DNA of 64,000 nt, from the NCBI RefSeq assembly GCF_013315695.1, contig NZ_CP054353.1; one strand, 5' to 3'. Within the stretch, counting starts at the first letter, position 1. Each line of letters opens with the position of its first letter. Shown one piece after another: positions 1-26,061 of the stretch. The stretch comes from Escherichia coli (lineage in GTDB: Bacteria; Pseudomonadota; Gammaproteobacteria; Enterobacterales; Enterobacteriaceae). The translations under genes and the position numbers were made by a program. The notes beneath the pieces were generated by a model, which did no database searches, was not told the origin of the DNA, and was given only the letters and a program-made list of their open reading frames with translations.

Positions 1-603
1 CTGCTTATATAAATGGGCCTGATACCCAGCGACAATACCCAGTAAGAGAAGAATGAACAGAAGTAAATTACGGCAACGTAGCCCGGACGTGCCGGTTAAA
101 GGATGCCTTGTCGGCCAGCCGTATCCCAGCGAAAAACTGATATGCGTTCCAACGGGAATAATGACTATCCACCAGTACTCACCACCGACTAATGAGACTA
201 ACAAAACACCCAGCCAGGGAAGCATAAGATCTGCCAACCAACCTGAAACCATCTGGCGAAATTGATAATCTGCCAGATGTAGCGTGATTATCCAGCCAAC
301 CAGGGTTAATAAAGCGGGAACTAAAAAAAGACATTGTCGCCAGGCGGCTATTTCTCTGTTTTCTGGTGCGCTATCGCCCGCCCACACTCGCCCAGAGAAA
401 AATAGCAGTAATGCGCCCAGCGTCAGCATAAAGACGTTGAGTAGAAGATAAATTGTTGGTGTAAAGAGTAAATTGCAAAACTCAAGAATAGCGGCAAGCC
501 CGGCCCCCAGCATGGCAACAACCGCTGCCAAAAATTGCGCCAGTATGGGGATGCCAAAAAAAGTCATTACCAGCGAGGTCAAAATCCATTTTCCGTTTTG
601 CAT
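1..603 (-). CDS. Hypothetical polytopic inner-membrane protein, 5' part only (about 201 codons in window; 3' end lies beyond position 1)
   Basis: Reverse-strand frame opens with ATG at 603..601 (MQNGKWILTSLVMTFFGIPILAQFLAAVVAML...) and stays open to position 1; several hydrophobic segments. Not in the ORF track, presumably because no stop falls inside the window. Identity not recognised. Confidence 0.45.
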   Translation of the reverse strand, partial: MQNGKWILTSLVMTFFGIPILAQFLAAVVAMLGAGLAAILEFCNLLFTPTIYLLLNVFMLTLGALLLFFSGRVWAGDSAPENREIAAWRQCLFLVPALLTLVGWIITLHLADYQFRQMVSGWLADLMLPWLGVLLVSLVGGEYWWIVIIPVGTHISFSLGYGWPTRHPLTGTSGLRCRNLLLFILLLLGIVAGYQAHLYKQ

Positions 604-686
604 TATTCTTTCCATTCTTGCTGAATGGCGAAATTATACTCCCCGATAACCCTCGCCCCCTCTGGACACTTTTCCTAAATAAAGGC

Positions 687-724
687 GAAAAAAAACGGGA
701 CCTTTTGGCCCCGTTCTGTTTTTT
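687..724 (-). terminator. Rho-independent terminator downstream of glgP (probably bidirectional)
   Basis: Hairpin ACGGGACC-TTTT-GGCCCCGT at about 695..714, flanked by an A-run on one side and a T-run on the other; sits 8-40 nt past the glgP stop. Confidence 0.6.
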
Positions 725-731
725 AGCGAAC

Positions 732-3197
<2,466 letters not shown>

Positions 3198-4631
3198 CTA
3201 TTTCAAGCGATAGTAAAGCTCACGGTACGACTTCGCCGCGACCTGCCAGCTAAAATCCATTGCCATAGCCTGACGTTGCACAAACCGCCACAGTGAAGGA
3301 CGGGACCACAGTACAAAAGCACGTCGAATAGCCCGTAATAGCGACCAGGCATTACTATCTTCAAAGACAAACCCACTGGCGACGCCATCTGCAAGGTTCT
3401 CAAGAGAACAGTCAGAAACCGTATCAGCAAGCCCACCGGTGCGCCGCACTAACGGCAGCGTACCGTACTTCAATCCATAAAGTTGCGTTAAGCCGCACGG
3501 TTCAAAACGGCTGGGCACCAGAATGACGTCCGCGCCGCCCATAATGCGATGCGAAAATGCTTCGTGATAGCCAATCTGAACGCCCACCTGGCCGGGGTAT
3601 TCCGCTGCCGCCGCAAGGAAACCTTCCTGCAGCACCGGATCGCCCGCGCCGAGTAGCGCCAGTTGCCCGCCCTGCTCCAGAAGACCCGGTAAGGCCTCCA
3701 GCACCAGGTCGAGACCTTTCTGGCTGGTCAGACGGCTCACCACTGCAAAAAGCGGCACTTTATCGTCAACCTTAAGCCCCATTGCGATTTGTAACTGGCG
3801 CTTATTTTCCGCTTTATCTTCCAACGTATCGCGGGTGTAACGCGAGGCCAACAGTAAGTCCGTCTCTGGACTCCAGATTTTCTCGTCCACGCCGTTCAGT
3901 ACGCCGGAAAGACGCCCTTCACGGTGACGCTGTTGCAACAGACCTTCCATACCGTAGGCAAACTGCGGTTCGGTGATCTCGCGAGCGTAGGTTGGGCTGA
4001 CTGCCGTAATGTGATCGGCATAGTACAGACCGGCCTTCAGGAAAGAGATTTGTCCGTTGAATTCCAGCCCATGAATATTAAAGAATGACCATGGCAATTG
4101 GATGTCATTCATATGATGTGCATAAAACATGCCTTGATAGGCCAGGTTGTGCACAGTAAACACCGACTTCGCCGGACGCCCGCGCGCCGCCAGATACGCA
4201 GGCGCAAGACCTGCATGCCAGTCGTGCGCATGCACCACATCAGGACGCCAGAATGGGTCAAGCCCGCTGGCCATTTCTGCCCCAACCCACCCCAGCAGCG
4301 CAAAACGCAATACGTTGTCGGTATAGGCAAATAAGTTGGTATCGTGATACGGGCTTCCCGGACGATCATAGAGATGCGGCGCGTCAATCAGGTATATGCC
4401 AACCCCGTTGTAATGACCGAACAACAGCGTGATATGTCCGGCGAAGGTATCACGACGGGATACTACCTGCGCATCGGTCACGCCACGGCGAATATCGGGA
4501 AATGCAGGCAACAGTACGCGAGCGTCAACGCCGTCTGCGATTTGTGCTGCGGGTAATGCCCCAATAACATCAGCCAGACCGCCGGTTTTAAGCAGCGGGA
4601 ACATCTCTGAACATACATGTAAAACCTGCAT
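3198..4631 (-). CDS. glgA: Glycogen synthase (ADP-glucose transglucosylase)
   Basis: 477-aa ORF; N-terminal KTGGLADV motif; sits between glgC and glgP. Confidence 0.97.
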
Positions 4632-5926
4632 TATCGCTCCTGTTTATGCCCTAACTTCCGTAGCATTTCGCGCGTTACCAGCACGATGCCTTCTTCTGAA
4701 CGATAGAAACGACGTGCATCTTCCTCTGCGTTTTCACCAATCACCATGCCTTCCGGGATAACACAAGCACGATCGATGACGCAGCGGCGCAGACGGCACG
4801 AGCGACCTACCCATACTTCCGGTAACAATACGGCGGAATCAATGTTGCAGAATGAATTCACGCGAACGCGCGAGAACAGAACGGACTGCACCACCACCGA
4901 ACCGGAGATCACACAACCGCCGGATACCAGTGAGTTAAGGGTCATCCCGTGGCTACCGGAGCGATCCTGCACGAATTTCGCTGGCGGTAATGATTCATTG
5001 TAGGTGCGAATTGGCCAATTGCGATCGTACATATCCAGTTCCGGCACCACAGAGGCCAGATCGAGGTTCGCTTTCCAGTAAGCTTCAAGCGTACCCACAT
5101 CGCGCCAGTACGGCTCGGCATCCGGGTCGGATTGTACGCAAGAGAGCGGGAACGGATGCGCATAGGCCAGACCGGCTTCGGTGATCTTGGGAATCAAATC
5201 TTTGCCAAAGTCGTGGCTGGAGTTCTCATCGCGATCGTCTTCTTCCAGCAGTTCATACAGATAGTCGGCGTCAAAGACGTAGATACCCATACTCGCCAGA
5301 GATTTGCTCGGATCGTTCGGCATTGACGGTGGGTTAGCAGGTTTTTCAACGAATTCGATAATTTTATCGTTCTCATCAACCGCCATAACGCCAAATGCGG
5401 AGGCTTCTTCAATCGGTACTGGCATACAAGCAACGGTGCAACGTGCGCCTTTTTCGACGTGGTCGATAAGCATACGCGAGTAGTCTTGCTTGTAGATATG
5501 GTCGCCCGCCAGGATCACCACGTATTCCGCTTTATAACGGCGGATAATGTCGAGGTTTTGGGTAACTGCATCTGCGGTGCCGCGATACCAGTTTTCCCCT
5601 TTCATTCTCTGCTGTGCTGGCAGCAGAGCGACAAACTCGTTCATTTCTTCATTGAAGAATGACCAGCCGCGCTGAATGTGCTGCACCAGAGTGTGGGACT
5701 GGTACTGGGTGATCACGCCCATACGACGGATCCCGGAGTTGATGCAGTTAGACAGCGCAAAGTCGATAATGCGGAACTTACCGCCGAAGTGTACGGCCGG
5801 TTTTGCTCGCTTATTGGTTAAATCCTTCAGGCGGGTACCACGTCCTCCCGCCAGTATCAGGGCAACAGATTTCAATGGCAGCTGGCGCGCCAACATTAAG
5901 TGATCGTTCTTCTCTAAACTAACCAT
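4631..5926 (-). CDS. glgC: Glucose-1-phosphate adenylyltransferase
   Basis: ORF track starts 12 codons upstream (5962); the ATG at 5926..5924 with GGAG 8 nt upstream gives the 431-aa protein starting [33 protein letters not shown]; its stop overlaps the glgA start by 1 nt. Confidence 0.95.
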
Positions 5927-5943
5927 GACTAACTCCTTTTTTA

Positions 5944-7917
5944 TCATCTCTGGAACACACACAATCCGTGTGCAGGTCCCTGCCAGACAGCCGTAATCAC
6001 TGGGTTATCCTCTCCAGCGAATGGGGGAATGGCGTGCCACTCCCCAGCAGGTAAAACAATCTCTGTTACCTCAAGCGTGGCGTTAATTGCGATCAAAAAG
6101 CGATCCGAGAGCAGAATTTGCAGCTGTTTCGGCCCGTTTTGCCACTCATCCGTGCTTAAAGGTTGAGCATATCGATTTAGCCAACGGACATTGCCGTCGC
6201 CTTCTTCCCACCAGCGATTCTCCATCAAAGCGGGAATGCGCTTGCGCAGATGGATTAACGCGGCGGTAAATGCGGTTAAACCACTGCTTGCCTGCGACCA
6301 GTCCAACCAGGTTAATTGGTTATCCTGACAGTAGGCATTGTTATTGCCATGCTGGCTGTGACCATGTTCGTCACCGGCCAGTAACATCGGCGTACCCTGG
6401 GAGAGCAACAACGTTGTTAACAGGGCGTGAATGCTGTCGCGCCGCCGTTCAACCAGATCAAGAGTACCGCCTAACCCTTCTTTACCATGATTGTTACTGT
6501 AATTGTTGTTGGTCCCGTCGCGATTTTCTTCTCCGTTTGCTTCATTGTGTTTATGGTTGAAGCAAACGCAGTCGCGAAGCGTAAAACCGTCATGCGCGGT
6601 GACGAGATTAATCGCGGCACTCGGCAGACGACCATTACGTTTAAAAACATCGCTGGAGGCAGCAAAACGCCCGGCAAACGCCCCCAGAGGCAAATCATAA
6701 TGCAGCCAGAAACGACGGGCAGCATCGCGGAAATGATCGTTCCACTCGGCAAACAGCGGCGGGAAATTTCCCACCTGATAACCACCAGGAGCAATATCCC
6801 ACGGTTCAGCAATTAACTTCACCTGCGAGAGCACCGGGCAGTTCTGGATAGCGGTAAACAACGGCGCATCCTGACGGAACTCTGGCGTACGGCCCATGAC
6901 TGCCGCCAGATCAAAGCGGAAACCATCGACGTGGCAGGTTTCTACCCAATAACGCAGGCAAGCGCTGGCATAATCCACTACCGCCGGATGACTCAAATTG
7001 AGCGTGTTACCACAACCGGTCCAGTTGTGATAATCGCCGTCTTCTCTTATCCAATAATAGCTACGGTTGTCGATCCCACGCAGCGAGAATAACGGGCCGT
7101 CGAGGTCTAGTTCCGCACTATGGTTGAGCACGATATCAAGAATGACTTCGATACCCGCTTTATGCAGTGCTTTGATTGCATCGCGAAACTCATCCAGCGC
7201 CGTTTCTGGGGAGCAGGCATACGCCGGATGCAGCGCAAACATCGCCACCGGGTTATAACCCCAGTAGTTACTTAGACCCATACGTTGCAGGCGTGGTTCG
7301 CTGGCAAACTGCGCCACCGGCAGCAGTTCCAGCGCGGTAATGCCCAACTGTTTCAAATAGTTGATCATCACCGGATGCCCGAGGGCTTTATAAGTGCCAC
7401 GGATCTCGACCGGGATCTCCGGATGCAGGTACGTTAATCCTTTGACATGGGCTTCATAAATGATGGTGCTGCCCCATGGCGTGCGCGGCGGGGCATCATC
7501 TTCCCAGTCATAGTGATCAACCACCACTACGCATTTCGGCGCAATGGCGGCGTTGTCGCGATAGTCAGGTTCATTATGACCGGCGTGTAGCAGCGGGTTA
7601 TCTTTAAACTCCCCGTCAATTTGCCGCGCGCAAGGATCAATCAACAACTTCGCCGGGTTAAAGCGATGCCCCTCGGCGGGTTGCCAGGGGCCATGAACGC
7701 GATAACCATAACGCAAACCCGGACGCGCATCCGGCAGATAACCGTGCCAAATGTCGCCACTGTGCCCTGGCAAGTCATAGCGATGTTCCTGGCCATTGGC
7801 GTCAAAGACACACAGCTCTACCCGCTCGGCATGAGCGGAGAAAAGTGTGAAGTTGACGCCCTGACCGTCGTAATGCGCGCCGAGGGGTGCGGGTTTGCCA
7901 ATGGCGAGTTGTGTCAT
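5944..7917 (-). CDS. glgX: Glycogen debranching enzyme
   Basis: 657-aa ORF, GH13-type sequence; overlaps the glgB stop by 4 nt. Confidence 0.97.
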
Positions 7918-12306: not shown

Positions 12307-13509
12307 TTACCTGAACTGATAATGACCTTCGCCCAATCGAATAACCCTTCCCTCTTCTTCTGCGCGGTTCAGCCACACACTAATTTGTTCGATGGTTAAA
12401 CCAGTACAAGACGCCAGCCTTTCAATACTTATCGATTCCTTTGCAAGGATCGCCAGTTCCGCCACAAAGAGTTGATAAAAATCGACAGGCGTATGCGCGG
12501 GCATTACTGCGTAATTTGCGTCATCTTCATGCAGCGAAAACAGTTCTGGTTGAACGTTACGGAGTGCTTTGTCATACATCAGCCCAGGAACGTCTGGCAG
12601 TCTGATCGTCACATTCTCAGCCTGTTCAGCACTCCATGACGCCCCATTTTCTACTAATCGTGAATTGGCTGATTGCACATCCTGATTTGGTTTAACCAGA
12701 ACAGGCAGCCACTGATGTTTTAACGCCTCCATCGCTCCGGTTATCGTTCCACCGGTCATTCCCGCACGTACAACCATTGCGCTTTCAGCAAGGCAATAAA
12801 TATATTTATTCCGCGCCATTGCATTGCCGACGGTGAAACGTACCTCTGGGTAAAACGGTGAAATCAACACCAGGTTGCCTGCTATAAGCCCTTCACGCCA
12901 TTTCACTAACGTACTCGTTTTTAACAAGCTATCAGCTAATACGCCAACGGCAGTTCCCCCGGCCTCCAGTGCCGACGCCATTGCACATTCATCAATACCT
13001 CGCGCACCACCAGAGATAACGCAAATCCCCTGTTGGGCCAGTTTCGCTGCCAGTTGTTGGGTATAGCGCAAATCGGCAGTCGGAGCATCTCGCGAGCCAA
13101 CAATCGCCATACCTTCCGCTTGCAGTAATGCTTTATTCCCGCAGCCAAATAAAACGGGAGGTGCATCCGTTCGCAATCGGTTTTTCAAGCGAACGGGATA
13201 ATCGGCATCTCCGCGGGTTAAGATCCATAAACCGGCGCGTTGCCACTTATCTACCGCCAACGCCAGACTATGACCACGCGCCAGCAAGCCAAGAATACGC
13301 TCCTGAGAAATACGCGGATCGCTCCAGCCTGTAAGTTTCTCTTGCGGTTGCGGCACCAGAAGATCGGCGGGACTGATACGTTGGTGCTTCAGCCATAATG
13401 CAAACTTCCCCCATTCACTATTACTAAGAGGTTTATACTCACTCGCCGCCGCGCGAGAAAAATCGCTGGTTAGCAGGAGAGTTGCTTGTGCATTGGCTGA
13501 AAGATTCAT
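12307..13509 (-). CDS. DprA/Smf-like protein; putative partner (PsyrA/RqlI-like) of the upstream helicase
   Basis: 400 aa from ATG at 13509..13507 (the ORF-track start at 13602 lies inside the upstream gene). Rossmann motif VISGGARGIDECAMASAL typical of DprA, and a C-terminal winged-helix-like tail. Start shares one base with the upstream stop (TGATG). Confidence 0.75.
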   Translation of the reverse strand: MNLSANAQATLLLTSDFSRAAASEYKPLSNSEWGKFALWLKHQRISPADLLVPQPQEKLTGWSDPRISQERILGLLARGHSLALAVDKWQRAGLWILTRGDADYPVRLKNRLRTDAPPVLFGCGNKALLQAEGMAIVGSRDAPTADLRYTQQLAAKLAQQGICVISGGARGIDECAMASALEAGGTAVGVLADSLLKTSTLVKWREGLIAGNLVLISPFYPEVRFTVGNAMARNKYIYCLAESAMVVRAGMTGGTITGAMEALKHQWLPVLVKPNQDVQSANSRLVENGASWSAEQAENVTIRLPDVPGLMYDKALRNVQPELFSLHEDDANYAVMPAHTPVDFYQLFVAELAILAKESISIERLASCTGLTIEQISVWLNRAEEEGRVIRLGEGHYQFR

Positions 13510-15605
13510 CAATTTTTTACCGAGGTAGAAGCAAGGGCAAGAGGATAAACCGTCGGGCAACCTGCCTGGCGTAACAGTGCTGTCAGAACTGTCAGCGTCC
13601 ATGCAGAATCCACGATATCATCAACCAGCAACGCCGGACCTGGCATCAAAGGAGGGGTAATCACAAACGCCCCGTCGAGATTTTGACACTGGTGAAAACG
13701 GTTTTGCTGCATTTTCTGCGGTGGATTGTCCACGACTTTTTCAATGGCATCAATAAAAGGTAAGCCAAGTTTCGCCGCCAGTCGCCGGGCAAAATCAGGA
13801 ACCAGGTCGAGGTGCCTTAATGAAGGAACGCAGCATACCCAGGTTGGTTCAGGATGCGGATTCCAGCGTTGGCGAACCATTTCCGCACATGCTTCTACCA
13901 GCTCATCACTTAAGCGCCCCGTTTTTTTCTCCTGTGCTACCTGCTTTCCCCACCCGGAATCTCCCCAACGAGAAAGGATTCGCCCCGTAGATCCTTGTAA
14001 ACCCGCAGGCAAGTTCCCTTTAAATCCGTATTGCGTAAAAGCCCCAGCTGCCACCTGTTTATTGAGATTTAACGGCAGGTCAGCGTGTTTAATAAATAAA
14101 TTTGCCGCATGGAGTAAGCCGCTATCAATGTCGGGCGACAATAACGGATGCTGAAGACAACTGCTACATTTACCACAACGTTCGGCACTTGGCTCATCGA
14201 GTGCACGGCGCAGAAATTGCATTTTGCACTCCTTGGTCGTGATATAGCTTTCAACGTCTGCCAGTTCACTTTTTCTCTGATTCATCAAATGGTTAATTCG
14301 TTCATGATCAGGAGAAAAACTGACGATAGTTCTGCGCCATAATTTCTCGGTATACACCACAGGCGATGGATTTTCCGCTACCAATAATTTCAGTGCTTTT
14401 TCTATTTGCCCATAACGAAGATTCGTCCGTTGTTCAATGCCTCGTAGGGTAAGACCGTCATTCTCGCTAAGTACGTTGAGTATTTCATGAATTTGCGCCT
14501 CCGCAGGAAAGGCGCTTTCACGGAAGAATTGATGAATAGCGCGGTCTTCACCACCACAAAGCAATATGCCAACTGCGGAATCTATAGCACGCCCGGCACG
14601 CCCCACCTGTTGGTAGTAACCGACAATAGACCCCGGCATCTGATAATGAATGACGAAACCTAAATCAGGTTTATCAAACCCCATACCTAATGCCGTCGTC
14701 GCGACCAGCACTTTGATTTTATTTGCCAGCAGTGCCTGCTCCAGATATTCCCTGGCAGTATTAGAATCTTCCGCGCCTTCACAAGTCACGCCGCTGTAGT
14801 AAGCAAATGCACTGATACCATTTTTCCTTAACCACTCGGCGACAAGTTCAGCATCGCGAGTCGTCAGGGTATAAACAATTCCCGATTTGGAAAACTGAGG
14901 GATAACCGTTGCTAACCATGCCAGACGGGATGACTGTTCTCCTAAGACTAAGGCATCAAGCGCCAAACTTTCGCGAGCCAGCGTTCCACGCTGAATCACA
15001 ATGTCACCCAATTGCTGACGGATATCCTCAACAACACGGTTATTCGCTGTCGCGGTTGTACCCAGAACAGGGGTATTCGCAGGCAGTTGGCGCAAAATAT
15101 CTAATATACGTCGGTAATCCGGGCGAAAATCGTGGCCCCAATCAGAGATGCAGTGCGCCTCGTCGACCACAAGCAAGCCAATACGATCGGCTATAGGATA
15201 TAAAACCGTTTCGATAAAGTCCTGGTTTGCCAAACGTTCCGGGGAAACCAGCAAGCAATCGACCTCACCTTGCAGCAACTTATCGCTAATGCGCTGCCAT
15301 TCTTCCCTGTTTGTAGAATTCAACGTTTCAGCCGTAATACCTAACCGTTCAGCGGCGGCAACCTGGTTACGCATCAGGGCAAGCAAAGGAGAGATGATAA
15401 TTGTCGGGCCAGCGCCGCGATCGCGGAAGATTTTACTGGCGATGAAGTACACGGCACTTTTCCCCCAGCCGGTGCGCTGTACAACCAGCAGTTTTCGCCG
15501 CTGATTAACCACTGCATCTATGGCTTCCCATTGCCCTTCCCTGAAAGTAGCGGTGGTATTTCCTAACATCCGCTGTAAAAGCAATTCAGCTCCGTGCTTT
15601 TCCAT
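13509..15605 (-). CDS. RecQ-like DEAH helicase fused to a C-terminal ComF-type PRTase-like domain (PsyrT/RqlH-like)
   Basis: 698 aa. Helicase motifs TGWGKS, VVDEAHCISDWGHDFRPDY, LGTTATA, ATTALGMGFDKPD, YYQQVGRAGRA; CGKCSSC zinc-like motif; C-terminal segment with LLVDDIVDSAWT resembling the PRPP-binding loop of type-I PRTases. Confidence 0.8.
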   Translation of the reverse strand: MEKHGAELLLQRMLGNTTATFREGQWEAIDAVVNQRRKLLVVQRTGWGKSAVYFIASKIFRDRGAGPTIIISPLLALMRNQVAAAERLGITAETLNSTNREEWQRISDKLLQGEVDCLLVSPERLANQDFIETVLYPIADRIGLLVVDEAHCISDWGHDFRPDYRRILDILRQLPANTPVLGTTATANNRVVEDIRQQLGDIVIQRGTLARESLALDALVLGEQSSRLAWLATVIPQFSKSGIVYTLTTRDAELVAEWLRKNGISAFAYYSGVTCEGAEDSNTAREYLEQALLANKIKVLVATTALGMGFDKPDLGFVIHYQMPGSIVGYYQQVGRAGRAIDSAVGILLCGGEDRAIHQFFRESAFPAEAQIHEILNVLSENDGLTLRGIEQRTNLRYGQIEKALKLLVAENPSPVVYTEKLWRRTIVSFSPDHERINHLMNQRKSELADVESYITTKECKMQFLRRALDEPSAERCGKCSSCLQHPLLSPDIDSGLLHAANLFIKHADLPLNLNKQVAAGAFTQYGFKGNLPAGLQGSTGRILSRWGDSGWGKQVAQEKKTGRLSDELVEACAEMVRQRWNPHPEPTWVCCVPSLRHLDLVPDFARRLAAKLGLPFIDAIEKVVDNPPQKMQQNRFHQCQNLDGAFVITPPLMPGPALLVDDIVDSAWTLTVLTALLRQAGCPTVYPLALASTSVKN

Positions 15606-19791: not shown

Positions 19792-20829
19792 TTACTTCGC
19801 GAGAGTCACTGTGGAGGGAGAGGCTTGCTCAAAACCGCGTTCAAGGATTTCCAAATTGGTAAGAACTTCAGATTCCTTGACGTAATTTGGCGCACCATTG
19901 GTGATGGTTTGGTACAACGCATCATAAACGCGCCCGTAATCGCCCATCTCTGGCTTCATCTCTTCTCTGACCGTCACGCCTTCGTCATTGACATACTCCA
20001 GCACACCGACCGAATCATCCGCTGCGAATCCTGGTTCGCCCGGCATAATATTAGCCTTCAGGCTGGTTTCCTGCTGGTCGATACCGTATTTAATAAACGA
20101 ACCTTTCTTACCGTGAACGATAAATTTCGGATAATCGATTTTCACCAGATGGCTGGTTTTGACGATGGCTTTTAGATCGCCATAAAACAGCTGCGCTTCA
20201 AAGGTGTCGTCCGGATTGGCTTTATTACGCAGGCTGCGGATGTCATAAGCGACGTGATCCGGGCGACCGAACAGAGAAATAATCTGGTCCATCGTATGCA
20301 CACCAAGGCCATAGAACGCGCCATCCTGCGGCAGCCCAGGTTTGGTTTCTGCCACCGGGCGGTAATAGTCAAAATGGCTTTCCACTTCAACAATCTCTCC
20401 CAGCTTACCGCTTTCAATCGCTTTTTTCGCCGTCAGGAAGCAGGAATCAAAGCGACGATTCTGATACGGCGTGACGGTCAGCCCTTTGCTTTTCGCCAAC
20501 GCAAACAGCGCCTTCGCCTGGGCAAGCGTCGGGGTGAACGGTTTTTCGACCAGCACATTTTTCCCGGCTTCCAGCGCGCGCTTCGCGTATTCGAAATGGC
20601 TATCCGCGTGGGTGCAGACGACAACCAGCTTAACATCGGGATCGTTTAGCACTTCGTCGAGATCGCTGGTGAAATGGATATGAGAGTAAATGGGAGCCTG
20701 TTCTTCCGGCTTCGCATGGCGGCGAAAAATATGCGCGACATGCCAGCTATCCTTGCGGTTAAGTACATACGGCAGATGGTAACGGGTGGTGCTTTTGCCG
20801 AAGCCAATAAAGGCGCAGTTGATGACCAT
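19792..20829 (-). CDS. yhhX: Gfo/Idh/MocA-family NAD(P)-dependent oxidoreductase
   Basis: 345-aa ORF; N-terminal Rossmann INCAFIGFGKSTTRYHLPY. Confidence 0.9.
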   Translation of the reverse strand: MVINCAFIGFGKSTTRYHLPYVLNRKDSWHVAHIFRRHAKPEEQAPIYSHIHFTSDLDEVLNDPDVKLVVVCTHADSHFEYAKRALEAGKNVLVEKPFTPTLAQAKALFALAKSKGLTVTPYQNRRFDSCFLTAKKAIESGKLGEIVEVESHFDYYRPVAETKPGLPQDGAFYGLGVHTMDQIISLFGRPDHVAYDIRSLRNKANPDDTFEAQLFYGDLKAIVKTSHLVKIDYPKFIVHGKKGSFIKYGIDQQETSLKANIMPGEPGFAADDSVGVLEYVNDEGVTVREEMKPEMGDYGRVYDALYQTITNGAPNYVKESEVLTNLEILERGFEQASPSTVTLAK

Positions 20830-20950
20830 GATTTCGTCCTTATTAAGGTGGTTATTTACACCTTAGCGCAAAGCGGATGTGGTTCCTACTGGAGTGCGCA
20901 TAACGAACACAAGCACTCTCGTGGATAAATTGAGAACGAAAGATCAAAAA

Positions 20951-21040
20951 AAAAGCCAGCACCCGGCTGGCTAAGTAATACTGGAAGCAATGTGAGCAAT
21001 GTCGTGCTTTCAGGTTCTCCGCGAGGGTCTTCCTGATCGC
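20951..21040 (-). ncRNA. ryhB: RyhB small RNA (Fur-repressed, Hfq-dependent)
   Basis: Reverse complement of 20951..21040 reads GCGATCAGGAAGACCCTCGCGGAGAACCTGAAAGCACGACATTGCTCACATTGCTTCCAGTATTACTTAGCCAGCCGGGTGCTGGCTTTT, the RyhB sequence as I know it, ending in a GCCAGC/GCTGGC terminator hairpin and U-tract. ORF-track entries 20852..21100 and 21010..21225 across it are spurious. Confidence 0.9.
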
Positions 21041-21042
21041 GA

Positions 21043-21065
21043 GACAATAATAATCATTCTCATTC
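21043..21065 (-). promoter_or_regulatory. Fur box overlapping the ryhB promoter
   Basis: Minus strand just upstream of the RyhB 5' end reads GAATGAGAATGATTATTATTGTC, a GATAAT/ATTATC-type Fur-box array. Confidence 0.6.
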
Positions 21066-21162
21066 GCACTTGTCCAACACTTTTTGCAAAAAAAATGCAT
21101 TTGACTCGCATTTGAAAGTCAATGATGTTGAAAGGGACATTTACCCCAAAGAGGACAAAGGA

Positions 21163-21651
21163 ATGAGTGAGATAGTAATACGCCATGCTGAAACGCGGGA
21201 CTACGAGGCCATCAGGCAGATTCACGCCCAGCCGGAGGTGTATTGCAACACACTACAGGTGCCTCATCCTTCCGATTATATGTGGCAGGAGCGACTCGCC
21301 GATCGTCCCGGCATCAAGCAACTTGTCGCCTGTATTGATAGAGACGTCGTGGGCCATCTCACTATTGACGTGCAACAACGCCCACGCCGCAGTCATGTTG
21401 CCGATTTTGGTATCTGTGTCGACTCTCGCTGGAAGAACCGCGGCGTCGCCAGCGCCCTGATGCGCGAAATGATTGATATGTGCGACAACTGGTTGCGGGT
21501 AGATCGTATCGAGCTAACGGTGTTCGTCGATAACGCGCCAGCAATTAAGGTCTATAAAAAATTCGGCTTTAAGATTGAAGGGACTGGCAAAAAGTACGCA
21601 TTACGTAATGGTGAATATGTCGATGCGTATTATATGGCGCGGGTGAAGTAA
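21163..21651 (+). CDS. yhhY: GNAT-family N-acetyltransferase
   Basis: ORF track starts at TTG 21070; ATG at 21163 with AAGGA RBS gives the 162-aa protein MSEIVIRHAETRDYEAIRQIH... Confidence 0.9.
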   Translation: MSEIVIRHAETRDYEAIRQIHAQPEVYCNTLQVPHPSDYMWQERLADRPGIKQLVACIDRDVVGHLTIDVQQRPRRSHVADFGICVDSRWKNRGVASALMREMIDMCDNWLRVDRIELTVFVDNAPAIKVYKKFGFKIEGTGKKYALRNGEYVDAYYMARVK

Positions 21652-21886
21652 GATAGTGCCCTTTTTCTGAGATGGAAAAAGGGCGTCATTCAAAATCGGC
21701 ATATCTTCCTTTAATGTATTTATTTGCCCAATAAATATATTGAGATTTACCTCATAATTACGTCCTAAAGTGTAATATTTTATTATTAATATATACGCCT
21801 ACAATTTCCTGGAGTAAATAAATAACAATTAACAAGCATAATAGTGCCATTAATAAAATAGCATGCCATAAAAGGACTTTTCAGGG

Positions 21887-23065
21887 ATGAGTAATATTGT
21901 TTACCTGACAGTAACGGGAGAACAACAAGGAAGCATCTCCGCAGGTTGTGGGACTTCTGAGTCTACAGGTAATCGCTGGCAGAGCGGGCATGAGGATGAA
22001 ATATTTACATTCTCACTCTTAAATAGTATTACTAATACGGGGCTTGGTTCACAGTTCCATGGTATAACATTTTGTAAATTAATTGATAAAAGCACTCCAT
22101 TATTTATTAATTCCATTAACAATAATGAACAATTATTTATGGGATTTGACTTCTATCGAATAAATAGATTTGGTAGATGGGAAAAGTATTATTATATACA
22201 ACTAAGAGGCGCTTTTTTATCGGCTATTCATCATCAGATCATTGAAAATCAACTGGATACAGAAACAATAACTGTTAGTTATGAATTTATCCTCTGTCAA
22301 CATATTATCGCAAATACCGAGTTCAGCTATTTGGCACTCCCTGAAAATTATAACTGTTTGTTTTTACCAAATTCAAAAAACCAAACAAATAATCGTTTCA
22401 AAACGTTAAACAGCAAAGCTATTGGCAGGCTACTTGCTGCTGGTGGCGTATACAATGGGAACATTGAAGGATTCAGAGATACTGCGGAAAAACTGGGTGG
22501 AGATGCAATAAAAGGCTATGATCAAATACTAAATGAAAAAACAGCGGGCATAGCGATAGCAACAGCATCTATTCTTTTAACAAAGCGTTCTAATGTTGAT
22601 ACATATACAGAAATAAATAGTTACTTAGGCAAACTTAGAGGTCAACAAAAACTTCTTGATGGTATAGACATAATAGAAATAATATACATTAAGAGACCTT
22701 CAAAAGACTTAGCTAACTTACGAAAGGAGTTTAATAAAACTGTAAGAAAAAATTTTCTTATCAAACTTACAAAAACCTCCGAAGCATCTGGAAGATTCAA
22801 CGCCGAAGACCTTTTAAGAATGAGAAAGGGCAATGTTCCTCTAAATTATAATGTTCACCATAAACTATCTCTAGATGATGGTGGTACTAATGATTTCGAA
22901 AATTTAGTATTAATCGAAAACGAACCATATCATAAAGTTTTTACTAACATGCAATCACGAATAGCTAAGGGAATATTAGTAGGTGAAAGCAAAATCACTC
23001 CCTGGGCCATTCCATCTGGCTCAATTTATCCTCCCATGAAAAATATTATGGAACCCACAAAATGA
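21887..23065 (+). CDS. yhhZ: Hcp-family (T6SS tube-like) protein with C-terminal HNH-type nuclease motif; orphan Hcp-toxin fusion
   Basis: 392 aa; Hcp-like N-terminus MSNIVYLTVTGEQQGSISAGCGTSESTGNRWQSGHEDEIFTF; C-terminal NYNVHHKLSLDDGGTNDFENLVLIENEPYHKVF (HH..N..H pattern); AT-rich codon usage. Confidence 0.85.
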   Translation: MSNIVYLTVTGEQQGSISAGCGTSESTGNRWQSGHEDEIFTFSLLNSITNTGLGSQFHGITFCKLIDKSTPLFINSINNNEQLFMGFDFYRINRFGRWEKYYYIQLRGAFLSAIHHQIIENQLDTETITVSYEFILCQHIIANTEFSYLALPENYNCLFLPNSKNQTNNRFKTLNSKAIGRLLAAGGVYNGNIEGFRDTAEKLGGDAIKGYDQILNEKTAGIAIATASILLTKRSNVDTYTEINSYLGKLRGQQKLLDGIDIIEIIYIKRPSKDLANLRKEFNKTVRKNFLIKLTKTSEASGRFNAEDLLRMRKGNVPLNYNVHHKLSLDDGGTNDFENLVLIENEPYHKVFTNMQSRIAKGILVGESKITPWAIPSGSIYPPMKNIMEPTK

Positions 23066-23556
23066 TGACTAAAACCCAAATAAATAAATTAAAAAAAATG
23101 ATGAATGATTTAGACTATCCATTTGAAGCACCGCTCAAGGAATCATTTATTGAAAGTATAATCCAAATAAAATTTAATTCTAATTCAACTAATTGCCTGG
23201 AGAAGTTATGTAATGAAGTTAGTATTCTCTTTAATAATCAACCTGATTATCTTACTTTTTTAAGAGCAATGGATGGATTCGAAGTTAATGGATTACGATT
23301 ATTCAGCCTCTCGATTCCAGAACCTTCAGTTAAAAACCTTTTTGCCGTAAATGAATTTTATAGAAATAATGATGATTTCATAAACCCTGATCTACAAGAA
23401 CGGTTAGTGATCGGGGATGATAGCATTTCAATATTTACTTATGACATTAAAAATAACTTTTTTGAAATTAGAGATAATATTGGCACAGAAAATATATTCA
23501 GTTCGTTTAGTGATTTCTCTTCATTCTTAAACGAAATCATGGACAGTTGTTCATAA
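23062..23556 (+). CDS. yrhA: Hypothetical protein, candidate immunity protein for the YhhZ nuclease
   Basis: 164-aa ORF whose ATG overlaps the yhhZ stop (ATGA); AT-rich; immunity role inferred from arrangement only. Confidence 0.65.
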   Translation: MMTKTQINKLKKMMNDLDYPFEAPLKESFIESIIQIKFNSNSTNCLEKLCNEVSILFNNQPDYLTFLRAMDGFEVNGLRLFSLSIPEPSVKNLFAVNEFYRNNDDFINPDLQERLVIGDDSISIFTYDIKNNFFEIRDNIGTENIFSSFSDFSSFLNEIMDSCS

Positions 23557-24005
23557 TAATCAAAAGGTAACAAAAATCATTATAAACCATGCCATCTTTT
23601 TAGAGATTACCAGCAGAAAATTCCTTGTTCGAAACTTAGCAATGCAAGCTATGGAAAAACTTACAACGGAACTACACTCCTTAAGTGAGATGGACCGAAG
23701 ACATGTAATCTCTATTTTAGCCGAAATAGCTAATGGCTATGATGATTTTAGTGACATGTTGATTTAGTTAGAATTTCACCCGAATCATAAGATTCTGATA
23801 TCTTAAATAAGAAAATCCCGTTCGACGTTCTGAAAAAGAAATCACAAAACATTAGCAGATACTTATTTCGTGACTGTATATTATCCGATGAACTTTTTTC
23901 AAAACCAGCATTTAATAATATCTTTGACGAAGATGAACGCGTCTTTTCTCAAAGTATAACGCAAGAATAATAATATAACGATCAACAATAATATTTATTA
24001 TAATT

Positions 24006-24290
24006 ATGATTACTTATCACGACGCATTCGCGAAAGCGAACCATTACCTTGATGATGCAGATCTCGCCGTCATCATTACTCTACATGGACGCTTTAGCCA
24101 GGGCTGGTATTTCTGTTTCGAAGCACGAGAATTTCTCGAAACTGGTGATGAGGCCGCGCGTTTAGCCGGTAACGCACCTTTTATTATTGATAAAGACAGT
24201 GGTGAAATTCATTCCCTTGGAACGGCAAAGCCGCTGGAAGAATATCTACAGGATTATGAAATAAAAAAGGCTACCTTCGGCTTGCCCTGA
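24006..24290 (+). CDS. yrhB: YrhB-family small protein (reported heat-stable chaperone-like protein)
   Basis: 94-aa ORF MITYHDAFAKANHYLDDADLAVIITLHGRFSQGWYFCFEAREFLETGDEAARLAGNAPFIIDKDSGEIHSLG..., recognised as YrhB. Confidence 0.8.
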   Translation: MITYHDAFAKANHYLDDADLAVIITLHGRFSQGWYFCFEAREFLETGDEAARLAGNAPFIIDKDSGEIHSLGTAKPLEEYLQDYEIKKATFGLP

Positions 24291-24296
24291 CAATAC

Positions 24297-24320
24297 GGCC
24301 CTCTTCCCACGAAGAGGGCC
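24297..24320. terminator. Bidirectional terminator hairpin between convergent yrhB and ggt
   Basis: Perfect 10-bp stem GGCCCTCTTC-CCAC-GAAGAGGGCC between the two stops. Confidence 0.6.
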
Positions 24321-24327
24321 GCTAACC

Positions 24328-26061
24328 TTAATACCCCGCCGTTAAATCATCTACTGAGCGCGGGTCGGATGCGCCGTACAACTCACCGTCAGGCCCAACC
24401 ATAATGCTTTGTGTACTGCCCATCGCCTCTTTCAGCACTACTTTCTGACCTTTTGCTTCCAGCAGCTTGAGCGTATCCGGGCTAAATCCTTTCTCGACAC
24501 GCAGCTCGTCCGGCAACCACTGATGGTGGAAACGCGGTGCATTGGTCGCTTCGGCGACATTCATACCATAATCGATGCTATTCACCACCATTTGCAGCAC
24601 GGTAGTGATGATCCGGCTACCGCCTGGGCTACCAGTCACTAACCAGGTTTTACCGTCTTTCACCACAATGGTTGGTGACATCGACGACAGCGGGCGTTTA
24701 TTCGGCCCGACCGCGTTGGCGTCACCACCCACCAGCCCGTAAACGTTCGGTACGCCAGGTTTGGCGGAGAAATCATCCATCTGGTTATTGAGCAAAATAC
24801 CGCTCTCGCCCGCGACAATGCCCGTCCCGAAGGTGGTGTTCAGCGTATAGGTCACCGCCACCGCGTTACCGTCTTTATCCACCACTGAGTAATGGGTAGT
24901 TTGATTACTCTCATAAGGCGCAAGCTTGCCGGGGCGAATTTCGCTGGATGGCTTCGCTTTATTGATATCGATTTGATCGGCAATAGATTTGGCATAGGCT
25001 TTATTGGTCAGCGCCTGCCACGGTACTTTGACAAAATCCGGGTCGCCAAGATATTCCGAGCGGTCGGCATAGGCGTATTTCTCAGCTTCTGCCATGATTT
25101 GCATCGCGTCGGCGCTGCCAAAGCCGTACTTCTGCATATCGAAGTTTTCCAGAATATTGAGGATTTGTACGATATGGATCCCGCCGGAGGATGGCGGTGG
25201 CATGGAGTAAACCTGATACCCGCGATAATCGCCGCTTATCGGTGTGCGTTCGACCGCTTTATATGCCGCTAAATCTTCTTTGCTGATCAAGCCACCGTTT
25301 TTCTGCATCTCCTGGGCAATCTGTTCCGCTATCGTGCCTTTGTAGAATTCATCCGGGCCGTTTTCGGCAATCATCTCCAGGCTCTTTGCCAGGTTCGCCT
25401 GCACCAGCTTGTCGCCCTTTTTCAGCGGTTCGCCCTCTTTCCAGAAGATAGCTTTGCTGTTTTCGTGGTTCAGCAGCACTTCACTGCCGTAGGTTTTGAG
25501 ATCGTCAGCCAGCGCGTCGTTAACGATAAAACCATCGCGTGCCAGTTTAAACGCCGGTTGCACCACTTTATTCAACGGCATGGTGCCGTATTTATCCAGC
25601 GCCAACGAGAAACCCGCTACCGTACCGGGTGTGCCGGAAGCCAGATGCGAAGTGAGTGATTTTTTGCTGTCCGGGTTGCCCTGATCATCGAGGAACATAT
25701 CGCGGGTCGCTTTGGCGGGTGCCATTTCGCGGAAATCGATAGCCGTGGTATTGCCATTTTTCGAGCGGATCAGCATAAAACCACCGCCGCCCAGATTCCC
25801 TGCCTGCGGATGCGTTACTGCCAGCGCGTAGCCCACCGCCACGGCAGCATCAACGGCATTCCCGCCCTCCTTTAGAATATCTACCCCCACTTGGGTGGCA
25901 GTGGCATCGACAGACGCCACCATCCCCTGTTTCGCGCGTACCGGATGGAAGACATCTTCCTCCACACCATAAGAAACAGGAGGCGCGGCTACCGTACTAA
26001 AACAACTTCCTGTGAGCAGAGCAGCAATGGCCACCCGGCGTAAAAACGTCGGTTTTATCAT
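24328..26061 (-). CDS. ggt: Gamma-glutamyltranspeptidase
   Basis: ORF track starts 9 codons upstream; ATG at 26061 gives MIKPTFLRRVAIAALL... with a signal peptide; catalytic-threonine region TTHYSVVDKDGNAVAVTYTLN. Confidence 0.95.
   Translation of the reverse strand: MIKPTFLRRVAIAALLTGSCFSTVAAPPVSYGVEEDVFHPVRAKQGMVASVDATATQVGVDILKEGGNAVDAAVAVGYALAVTHPQAGNLGGGGFMLIRSKNGNTTAIDFREMAPAKATRDMFLDDQGNPDSKKSLTSHLASGTPGTVAGFSLALDKYGTMPLNKVVQPAFKLARDGFIVNDALADDLKTYGSEVLLNHENSKAIFWKEGEPLKKGDKLVQANLAKSLEMIAENGPDEFYKGTIAEQIAQEMQKNGGLISKEDLAAYKAVERTPISGDYRGYQVYSMPPPSSGGIHIVQILNILENFDMQKYGFGSADAMQIMAEAEKYAYADRSEYLGDPDFVKVPWQALTNKAYAKSIADQIDINKAKPSSEIRPGKLAPYESNQTTHYSVVDKDGNAVAVTYTLNTTFGTGIVAGESGILLNNQMDDFSAKPGVPNVYGLVGGDANAVGPNKRPLSSMSPTIVVKDGKTWLVTGSPGGSRIITTVLQMVVNSIDYGMNVAEATNAPRFHHQWLPDELRVEKGFSPDTLKLLEAKGQKVVLKEAMGSTQSIMVGPDGELYGASDPRSVDDLTAGY

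Follow-up and report, generated by a model that had tools for sequence, protein, structure and literature searches.

We describe here the gene yrhA and its upstream neighbor yhhZ in a stretch of 64,000 nucleotides of Escherichia coli DNA (contig NZ_CP054353.1), which we call the window. In the window, yrhA is a single open reading frame (ORF) of 164 codons. Comparison with other genomes shows this uninterrupted form to be the prevalent and ancestral allele of the gene, and the form found in strain K-12 to be a derived state. We conclude further that yhhZ and yrhA very probably make up a cassette of two genes, one for a toxin and one for its immunity protein, at the locus published under the names Hcp-ET1 and ETI1. 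The observation of an intact yrhA is correct but ordinary, and its discovery value is low: an intact gene is the normal state in E. coli, the K-12 insertion of IS1E is textbook knowledge, and the effector-immunity pair, like the K-12 disruption, was already known.

A sequence-only reading of the window had described yrhA as an uninterrupted gene of 164 codons with no trace of an insertion sequence (IS) in or near it. This description is accurate: a single ORF occupies the site (Table 1), and no terminal inverted repeat of IS1 occurs anywhere in the whole 64 kb of the window, even when up to three mismatches are allowed. The guanine-plus-cytosine (G+C) content of the yrhA segment is 28.5%, and at this composition a stop-free run of 164 codons has a chance of about 5e-7. 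When the AT-rich island that contains the gene was shuffled, none of 500 shuffles held 164 open codons, and the longest run was 130. The stop codon of yhhZ and the start codon of yrhA share four base pairs (ATGA), in the junction sequence ...ACAAAATGATGACT.... The same locus is found in AF3, a blood culture isolate from the UK whose sequence agrees with the window at 100% over 25 kb; RefSeq annotates no mobile element there, but only yhhX, yhhY, tssD (yhhZ), yrhA, yrhD (as a pseudogene), yrhB and ggt.

The sequence-only reading had also stated that in K-12 the gene is broken by a copy of IS1, and alignment bears out this statement. When the window is compared by BLAST with the K-12 record NZ_CP014272, window positions 20301-23451 correspond to positions 2-3152 of the K-12 locus and window positions 23443-25900 correspond to 3921-6378, with 768 bp extra in K-12 between the aligned blocks. 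The insert has the inverted repeats of IS1 (GGTGATGCTGCCAACTTACTGAT...), and on both sides of it stands the same 9-bp sequence in direct orientation, the target duplication GACATTAAA, of which the window holds a single copy, as an empty site. The insertion point lies exactly after codon 130 of yrhA, and the K-12 product has 138 amino acids (aa), that is, 130 residues of YrhA followed by 8 residues encoded by IS1. If we remove from K-12, in silico, the IS1 together with one copy of the duplication, a 164-codon ORF is restored in the same frame, and 160 of its 164 residues are those of the window protein. In the annotation of NZ_CP014272, tssD is followed by a 'YrhA family protein' of 138 aa, a transposase of the IS1A family, yrhD, yrhB and ggt. 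The K-12 element (yrhA::IS1E, b3443-b3445) has been named IS1E and located 'within the uncharacterized yrhA gene' (PMC12428005).

The insertion exchanges the last 34 residues of YrhA for the 8 that IS1 supplies. In an AlphaFold2 model the lost residues, 131-164, form two strands (133-138 and 145-149) and the C-terminal helix (152-163), and they include FEIRD, the best-conserved C-terminal motif of the YrhA family. The truncated K-12 protein has likely lost its function.

A second insertion is present in strain 200088 from Mali (NZ_CM128592), whose yrhA carries an independent 768-bp IS1. This copy is oriented like that of K-12, lies 56 bp downstream of it by insertion site, and has a 9-bp duplication of its own, CAGTTCGTT. 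IS1 appears to have targeted the 3' end of yrhA, which is AT-rich, repeatedly. We also note that residue 119 of YrhA (GAT in the window, 23416-23418) is tyrosine in K-12 and in strain 200088, and that in the window it is the aspartate of VIGDDS, conserved among other E. coli and other genera. The tyrosine could reflect relaxed constraint or a simple lineage polymorphism.

The distribution of the two states was surveyed in 5426 complete E. coli genomes, in which yrhA was called uninterrupted when at least 80% of the gene lay in one unbroken place. The gene is present in 3783 of the 5426 genomes, and it is uninterrupted in 3404 of these 3783 carriers, about nine-tenths. The junction of yrhA with IS1 that is seen in K-12 occurs in 357 genomes. 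Among the 60 junction matches listed, 59 are K-12-type or laboratory strains (MG1655, W3110-type, DH5alpha, DH1, C600, J53, NCM3722 and similar), and the sole exception is strain 200088, with its separate insertion. Outside the species, YrhA has relatives with a length of 164-166 aa in Citrobacter, Klebsiella, Leclercia and Dryocola. Because of the target-site duplication, the clean restoration of the reading frame in silico and the distribution across genomes, we regard the uninterrupted gene as the ancestral form and the K-12 gene as derived. The proposal of the sequence-only reading that this strain keeps the ancestral, intact form is thus upheld.

Conversely, the intactness of yrhA could be secondary, if an ancestor of the window strain carried the IS1 and its lineage lost the element by precise excision. 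IS1 can excise precisely, at low frequency, and to this extent such a history is a formal possibility. However, the window has one copy of GACATTAAA and no scar, and the strains listed with the junction are almost all of the K-12 or laboratory type, while the 3404 uninterrupted genomes are diverse and are joined by other genera. Moreover, the nearest named relatives of the window strain are IAI39 and CE10 (99.1% over 25 kb), not K-12. We consider precise excision to be extremely improbable, and effectively refuted by the distribution.

We turn now from the integrity of the gene to the protein pair. The N-terminal part of YhhZ is an Hcp domain, which is recognized by TIGR03344 (117.9 bits, with a cut-off of 58.9) and by PF05638 (43.3 bits, with a cut-off of 23.5; E=5e-11), and which matches the Hcp structures 3he1, 6a2v and 5mxn. 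Toward the C-terminus, the HNH model PF01844 gives 17.4 bits on residues 322-343, under its cut-off of 21.4. Two relatives of the toxin with the same motif, at loci L011 and L013 (43-49% identical), exceed this cut-off, with 27.1 and 25.2 bits. In the His-Me finger classification, YhhZ is the type of group 32 (PMC5714182).

YrhA matches the NCBIfam model NF038335 ('YrhA family protein', YPO0640_fam) over residues 4-163 of its 164, with 127.5 bits and E=3.7e-37 (the cut-off is 55). When 1.84 billion clusters were searched exhaustively with YrhA by phmmer, only 68 representatives reached E<=0.001, and many of these are fragments. The links to the SUKH (SMI1/KNR4) superfamily come by way of 44 aligned relatives of YrhA: 17 of them match SMI1_KNR4 (PF09346, SUKH-1), 15 match SUKH_6 and 13 match SUKH_5, and the best match to SMI1_KNR4 reaches 7e-11. 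The profile of the family, in turn, matches the SUKH structure 2icg with E=0.0014. The AlphaFold2 model of YrhA has a predicted local distance difference test score (pLDDT) of 90.9 and a predicted template modeling score (pTM) of 0.87. The top 13 matches of this model in the Protein Data Bank (PDB), as found by Foldseek, are to YobK (2prv), Lin2918 (2icg), BF1740 (3d5p), Knr4 and PSPTO_5518 (2pag), with probabilities of 0.72-1.0 and template modeling (TM) scores of about 0.41-0.61; the next match is Syd. Since the best PDB matches all belong to the SUKH superfamily, the relatives match SUKH models in Pfam, and the family profile matches 2icg, YrhA is a divergent SUKH protein.

The SUKH superfamily reportedly consists of immunity proteins for nucleic-acid-degrading toxins, as set out by Zhang, Iyer and Aravind in 2011. 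YrhA resembles such immunity proteins, for example YobK of B. subtilis (PDB 2prv), both in its alpha+beta fold (Foldseek probability 1.0, TM 0.54-0.57) and in the position of its gene directly downstream of that of a nucleic-acid-degrading toxin. Unlike them, it is too divergent for the SUKH models of Pfam and forms a small family of its own, NF038335.

Some other candidates were rejected. NPC1_N appeared in the Pfam scan of YrhA at E=0.076, which is chance-level, and the antibody heavy chains that phmmer returned from the PDB sequences, with E between 0.05 and 1.3, were likewise judged to be chance. PADLOC contains no model for YhhZ or for YrhA. One apparent relative, P0131, which is 31% identical to YrhA, proved to be an artefact: its contig (L010, Logan SRR33321306, 1578 bp, ungapped) is E. 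coli yhhZ-yrhA with every A and G exchanged, and it shows 592 A>G, 246 G>A and 12 other differences. This artefact seeds a fake '31% identical' cluster in public protein collections. P0131 was one of the 44 rows behind the structure model of YrhA, and no effect on the result is expected.

The pairing of YrhA with the toxin can be assessed from the neighbors of its relatives. Four relatives of YrhA (P0127, P0140, P0141 and P0151, at loci L011-L014), with 25-50% identity, are each encoded 9-10 nt downstream of a gene for an HNH toxin. The C-terminal 210-230 aa of these toxins are 43-53% identical to residues 154/172-382 of YhhZ, the HNH motif included, and their N-terminal 120-170 residues are not Hcp. 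One of these N-termini is DUF8093 according to precomputed Pfam assignments, and another of the loci adjoins a TraG_N gene. At a further locus, L009, the linker of YhhZ is found fused to Ntox30, not to HNH; the gene that follows encodes a different protein of 124 aa, and a YrhA-like gene lies further downstream as an orphan. On this comparison, the YrhA-type gene tracks the HNH toxin domain and not the delivery domain. In polymorphic toxin systems such tracking is the signature of cognate immunity, and it marks YrhA as the putative immunity protein of the HNH module.

The linker itself, residues 172-229 of YhhZ, deserves separate comment. It holds a glycine-rich stretch and shows the pattern ...GRLLAAGGVYNGN.EGFR.TAE.LGG.A..GYDQ.LNE..., followed by the hydrophobic stretch AGIAIATASILL (residues 219-231). 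It is 78% identical, over 58 aa, to the DUF8093-Ntox30 toxin of locus L009, and it also occurs in four HNH toxins that are not Hcp proteins. On these similarities it might be a portable junction by which toxin-immunity cassettes move between delivery systems, an idea that we hold to be rather unlikely. The linker and the hydrophobic stretch could be a recombination junction or a membrane-translocation module. If the idea is true, the linker would tie an Hcp carrier belonging to a secretion system of type VI (T6SS) to a different, uncharacterized delivery domain, and it might aid the passage of the toxin across the inner membrane of the target cell. YrhA-like genes would then also pile up as orphan immunity genes behind unrelated toxins, as at L009.

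The locus has a published counterpart. According to two reviews (PMC6730261 and PMC6099711) and a preprint (10.1101/2024.03.05.583533), which report the work of Ma et al. (2017), Hcp-ET1 is an HNH DNase that is delivered by T6SS-2 and degrades the DNA of the target cell, and ETI1, encoded downstream, neutralizes it. The accession given for Hcp-ET1 is AAF13_24945 of the O104:H4 strain C227-11 (PMC6730261). In the RefSeq annotation of C227-11, RS24945 is yrhA and RS24950 is tssD, and the two lie between ggt/yrhB/yrhD and yhhY. The proteins of the window and of C227-11 are identical at 382 of 392 residues for YhhZ and at 159 of 164 for YrhA. The orphan Hcp-HNH of strain 154, an E. coli that produces Shiga toxin (STEC), of serotype O22:H8, occupies the same locus as yhhZ-yrhA and has been equated with Hcp-ET1/ETI1 (10.1101/2024.03.05.583533). 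By these correspondences we identify the yhhZ-yrhA locus as the Hcp-ET1/ETI1 locus. The window shares with the published pair (STEC004, O104:H4 C227-11) the chromosomal order yhhY-tssD-yrhA-yrhD-yrhB-ggt and the same two-gene architecture. It differs from C227-11 by 10 amino-acid substitutions in YhhZ and 5 in YrhA, and by its truncated yrhD; moreover, Hcp-ET1 is reportedly delivered by T6SS-2, whereas the aspV site of AF3, the isolate identical to the window, is without a T6SS. With an Hcp domain and an HNH motif in YhhZ, a SUKH fold in a protein whose gene follows the HNH module, and a match to the Hcp-ET1/ETI1 locus, the effector/immunity arrangement proposed by the sequence-only reading finds good support.

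The mechanism that we hold to be most likely is as follows. The genes yhhZ and yrhA would be transcribed together and coupled in translation through their ATGA overlap. YrhA would bind and block the HNH domain, both in the cytoplasm of the producer and in recipient kin cells, and by its Hcp moiety YhhZ would enter the tube of the T6SS, so that the toxin is delivered. Physical binding, neutralization and delivery by T6SS-2 are steps that we infer or take from the literature. The arrangement is reminiscent of colicins E7 and E9 with Im7 and Im9, where an HNH DNase is likewise neutralized by a small protein encoded immediately downstream. The colicins differ in that their import is receptor-mediated, in place of an Hcp fusion, and in that the fold of their immunity proteins is unrelated to SUKH, since Im7 and Im9 are four-helix proteins.

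Several observations weigh against this account. A direct Pfam scan of YrhA (PF09346, PF14567, PF14568, etc.) yields no SUKH model at E<=0.1, and the fold match is moderate, with a best TM of 0.54-0.57. The experimental claims on Hcp-ET1 and ETI1 reach us second-hand, through reviews and a preprint, and the RefSeq tags are offset by one gene from the published tag of Hcp-ET1, AAF13_24945. K-12 is viable with an intact, full-length yhhZ beside a truncated yrhA. Finally, AF3 (L008, NZ_OZ547117 4668001-4718000) has no T6SS cluster at aspV, where the tRNA-Asp is directly followed by yafV, this being the one site inspected.

On another reading, YrhA is not an immunity protein at all: it would be a regulator or housekeeping protein akin to SMI1/KNR4, or would lie beside yhhZ as a hitch-hiker without function. 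The yeast SMI1/KNR4 proteins have other roles, and structures of Knr4 are among the fold matches; the missing direct Pfam match and the tolerance of K-12 for a truncated YrhA next to an intact yhhZ would also fit. However, four unrelated contexts, which differ in their N-terminal domains, all place the gene behind the same HNH module, and another gene takes its place when the toxin domain is Ntox30. It overlaps the toxin gene by 4 bp, and neutralization by ETI1 is reported in the secondary literature. We therefore hold a role other than immunity to be very unlikely. As for K-12, its viability means either that the toxin is silent, or that the truncated YrhA still works, or that cytoplasmic immunity is dispensable. 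Silencing is the simplest way to reconcile the yhhZ of K-12 with its broken yrhA: the island has about 30% G+C, and H-NS-bound 'promoter islands' are reported inside yhhZ and yrhA in K-12 (PMC3661553). K-12 also has no T6SS (PMC6730261).

A related question is whether the cassette of the window strain, although intact, is inactive as a weapon: it may be a silenced orphan without T6SS-2, retained for a defensive value, with YrhA as a shield against neighbors that carry Hcp-ET1, or for a selfish, addiction-like value. Several facts point in this direction. In AF3, which agrees with the window at 100% over 25 kb, aspV is directly followed by yafV, and in O157 Sakai a T6SS cluster of about 37 kb lies between those two genes. 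K-12 keeps the island despite having no T6SS, the island has about 30% G+C and its K-12 copy is reported to be bound by H-NS, and strain JCM 20135 has an internal stop in yhhZ and an intact yrhA. Nevertheless, a single chromosomal site of AF3 was inspected and a T6SS could sit elsewhere, and aspV is the site that we take to be usual for T6SS-2 from one example (O157 Sakai). The full-length yhhZ with its intact HNH motif suggests, moreover, continued selection on the toxin. We regard the silenced orphan as a serious possibility, although we lean against it. With the aspV site of AF3 empty and that of Sakai occupied, the yhhZ-yrhA cassette of the window strain may serve mainly as immunity. The silenced orphan would refine the explanation of the locus as a toxin-immunity cassette, rather than exclude it.

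A deletion of the pair, delta(yhhZ-yrhA), arose spontaneously in K-12 topoisomerase I mutants (bioRxiv 10.1101/2024.10.07.617030). It is our speculation that this deletion was mediated by IS1E, and that it was selected since a change in supercoiling would lift the silencing of a DNase toxin in cells with a broken immunity gene.

The state of the locus in K-12 has some practical consequences. K-12, the usual laboratory 'prey' as well as the reference genome, has a damaged immunity gene beside an intact gene for a DNase toxin, and its sensitivity to attackers that carry Hcp-ET1 may be unusually high. In addition, annotation derived from K-12, in which yrhA is a pseudogene or a 'YrhA family protein' of 138 aa, shows less than is encoded in wild strains.

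The features of the locus, and one further system found in the window, are collected in Table 1.

Table 1. Positions of the yhhZ-yrhA locus, its parts and its neighbors in the window.
Feature	Position	Strand	Remarks
AT-rich accessory island between yhhY and ggt	21650..24300		About 29-37% G+C, as against about 52% in the flanks; holds yhhZ, yrhA, yrhD and yrhB
yhhZ (annotated tssD), 392 aa	21887..23065	+	Domain of the T6SS tube protein Hcp (aa 1-147) fused to a probable C-terminal HNH nuclease toxin; ortholog of Hcp-ET1
Conserved linker (or pre-toxin module) in YhhZ, residues 172-229, KTLNSKAIGRLLAAGGVYNGNIEGFRDTAEKLGGDAIKGYDQILNE...	22400..22573	+	Also in toxins that differ in N-terminus and in toxin domain
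Probable HNH catalytic core in YhhZ, residues 322-351, NVHHKLSLDDGGTNDFENLVLIENEPYH	22850..22939	+	HH...N...H motif present
ATGA overlap of yhhZ stop and yrhA start	23062..23065	+	Arrangement expected for translational coupling
yrhA	23062..23556	+	164 codons, ATG start, uninterrupted; member of the SUKH (SMI1/KNR4) superfamily; very probably the immunity protein cognate to the HNH domain of YhhZ (ETI1 in the literature)
GACATTAAA, empty target site of the K-12 IS1E	23443..23451	+	Duplicated on either side of IS1 in K-12
CAGTTCGTT, empty target site of the IS1 of strain 200088	23499..23507	+	Second, independent IS1 insertion in yrhA
yrhD remnant	23651..23767	+	TAT-to-TAG nonsense change at 23765-23767; ends at codon 39 of 51 (alignment to K-12 yrhD)
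yrhB, 94 aa, Imm35 family	24006..24290	+	PF15567, 8e-23, 80.8 bits; immunity-type orphan with no adjacent cognate toxin
PsyrT/PsyrA pair (RecQ-like helicase, 698 aa, and DprA-like protein, 431 aa)	12307-15605	-	PADLOC, E 0 and 6e-201

The island is missing or partial in many genomes, and O157:H7 matches in ggt only. In the window strain the island is damaged at yrhD, which has a premature stop. This nonsense change is seen relative to both K-12 and STEC, and RefSeq calls the gene a pseudogene in the identical strain AF3. Upstream of yrhD, a G-to-A change creates an earlier in-frame ATG at 23642.

In JCM 20135 (L005, NZ_AP043894), mentioned above, yrhA has its full 164 codons next to the yhhZ with an internal stop, an instance of an immunity gene that outlasts its toxin. 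The source of this strain is given as 'feces from diphtheria convalescent', which calls to mind the origin of K-12; its locus, however, is not K-12-like. We considered whether JCM 20135 might represent an ancestor of K-12 from before the IS1 insertion, and rejected this: its chromosome is 4.9 Mb long, its locus is 96.4% identical to the window, and it has stops of its own in yhhZ and yrhD.

Elsewhere in the window, PsyrT/PsyrA, a known anti-phage toxin-antitoxin defense system, lies between asd and gntU, where C227-11 has only yhgN. The region of AF3 near aspV holds an apparently complete Flag-2 cluster for lateral flagella (lafA, flhA/B, fliE-J, flgA-L), as well as an IS1 beside a truncated aldo/keto reductase gene.

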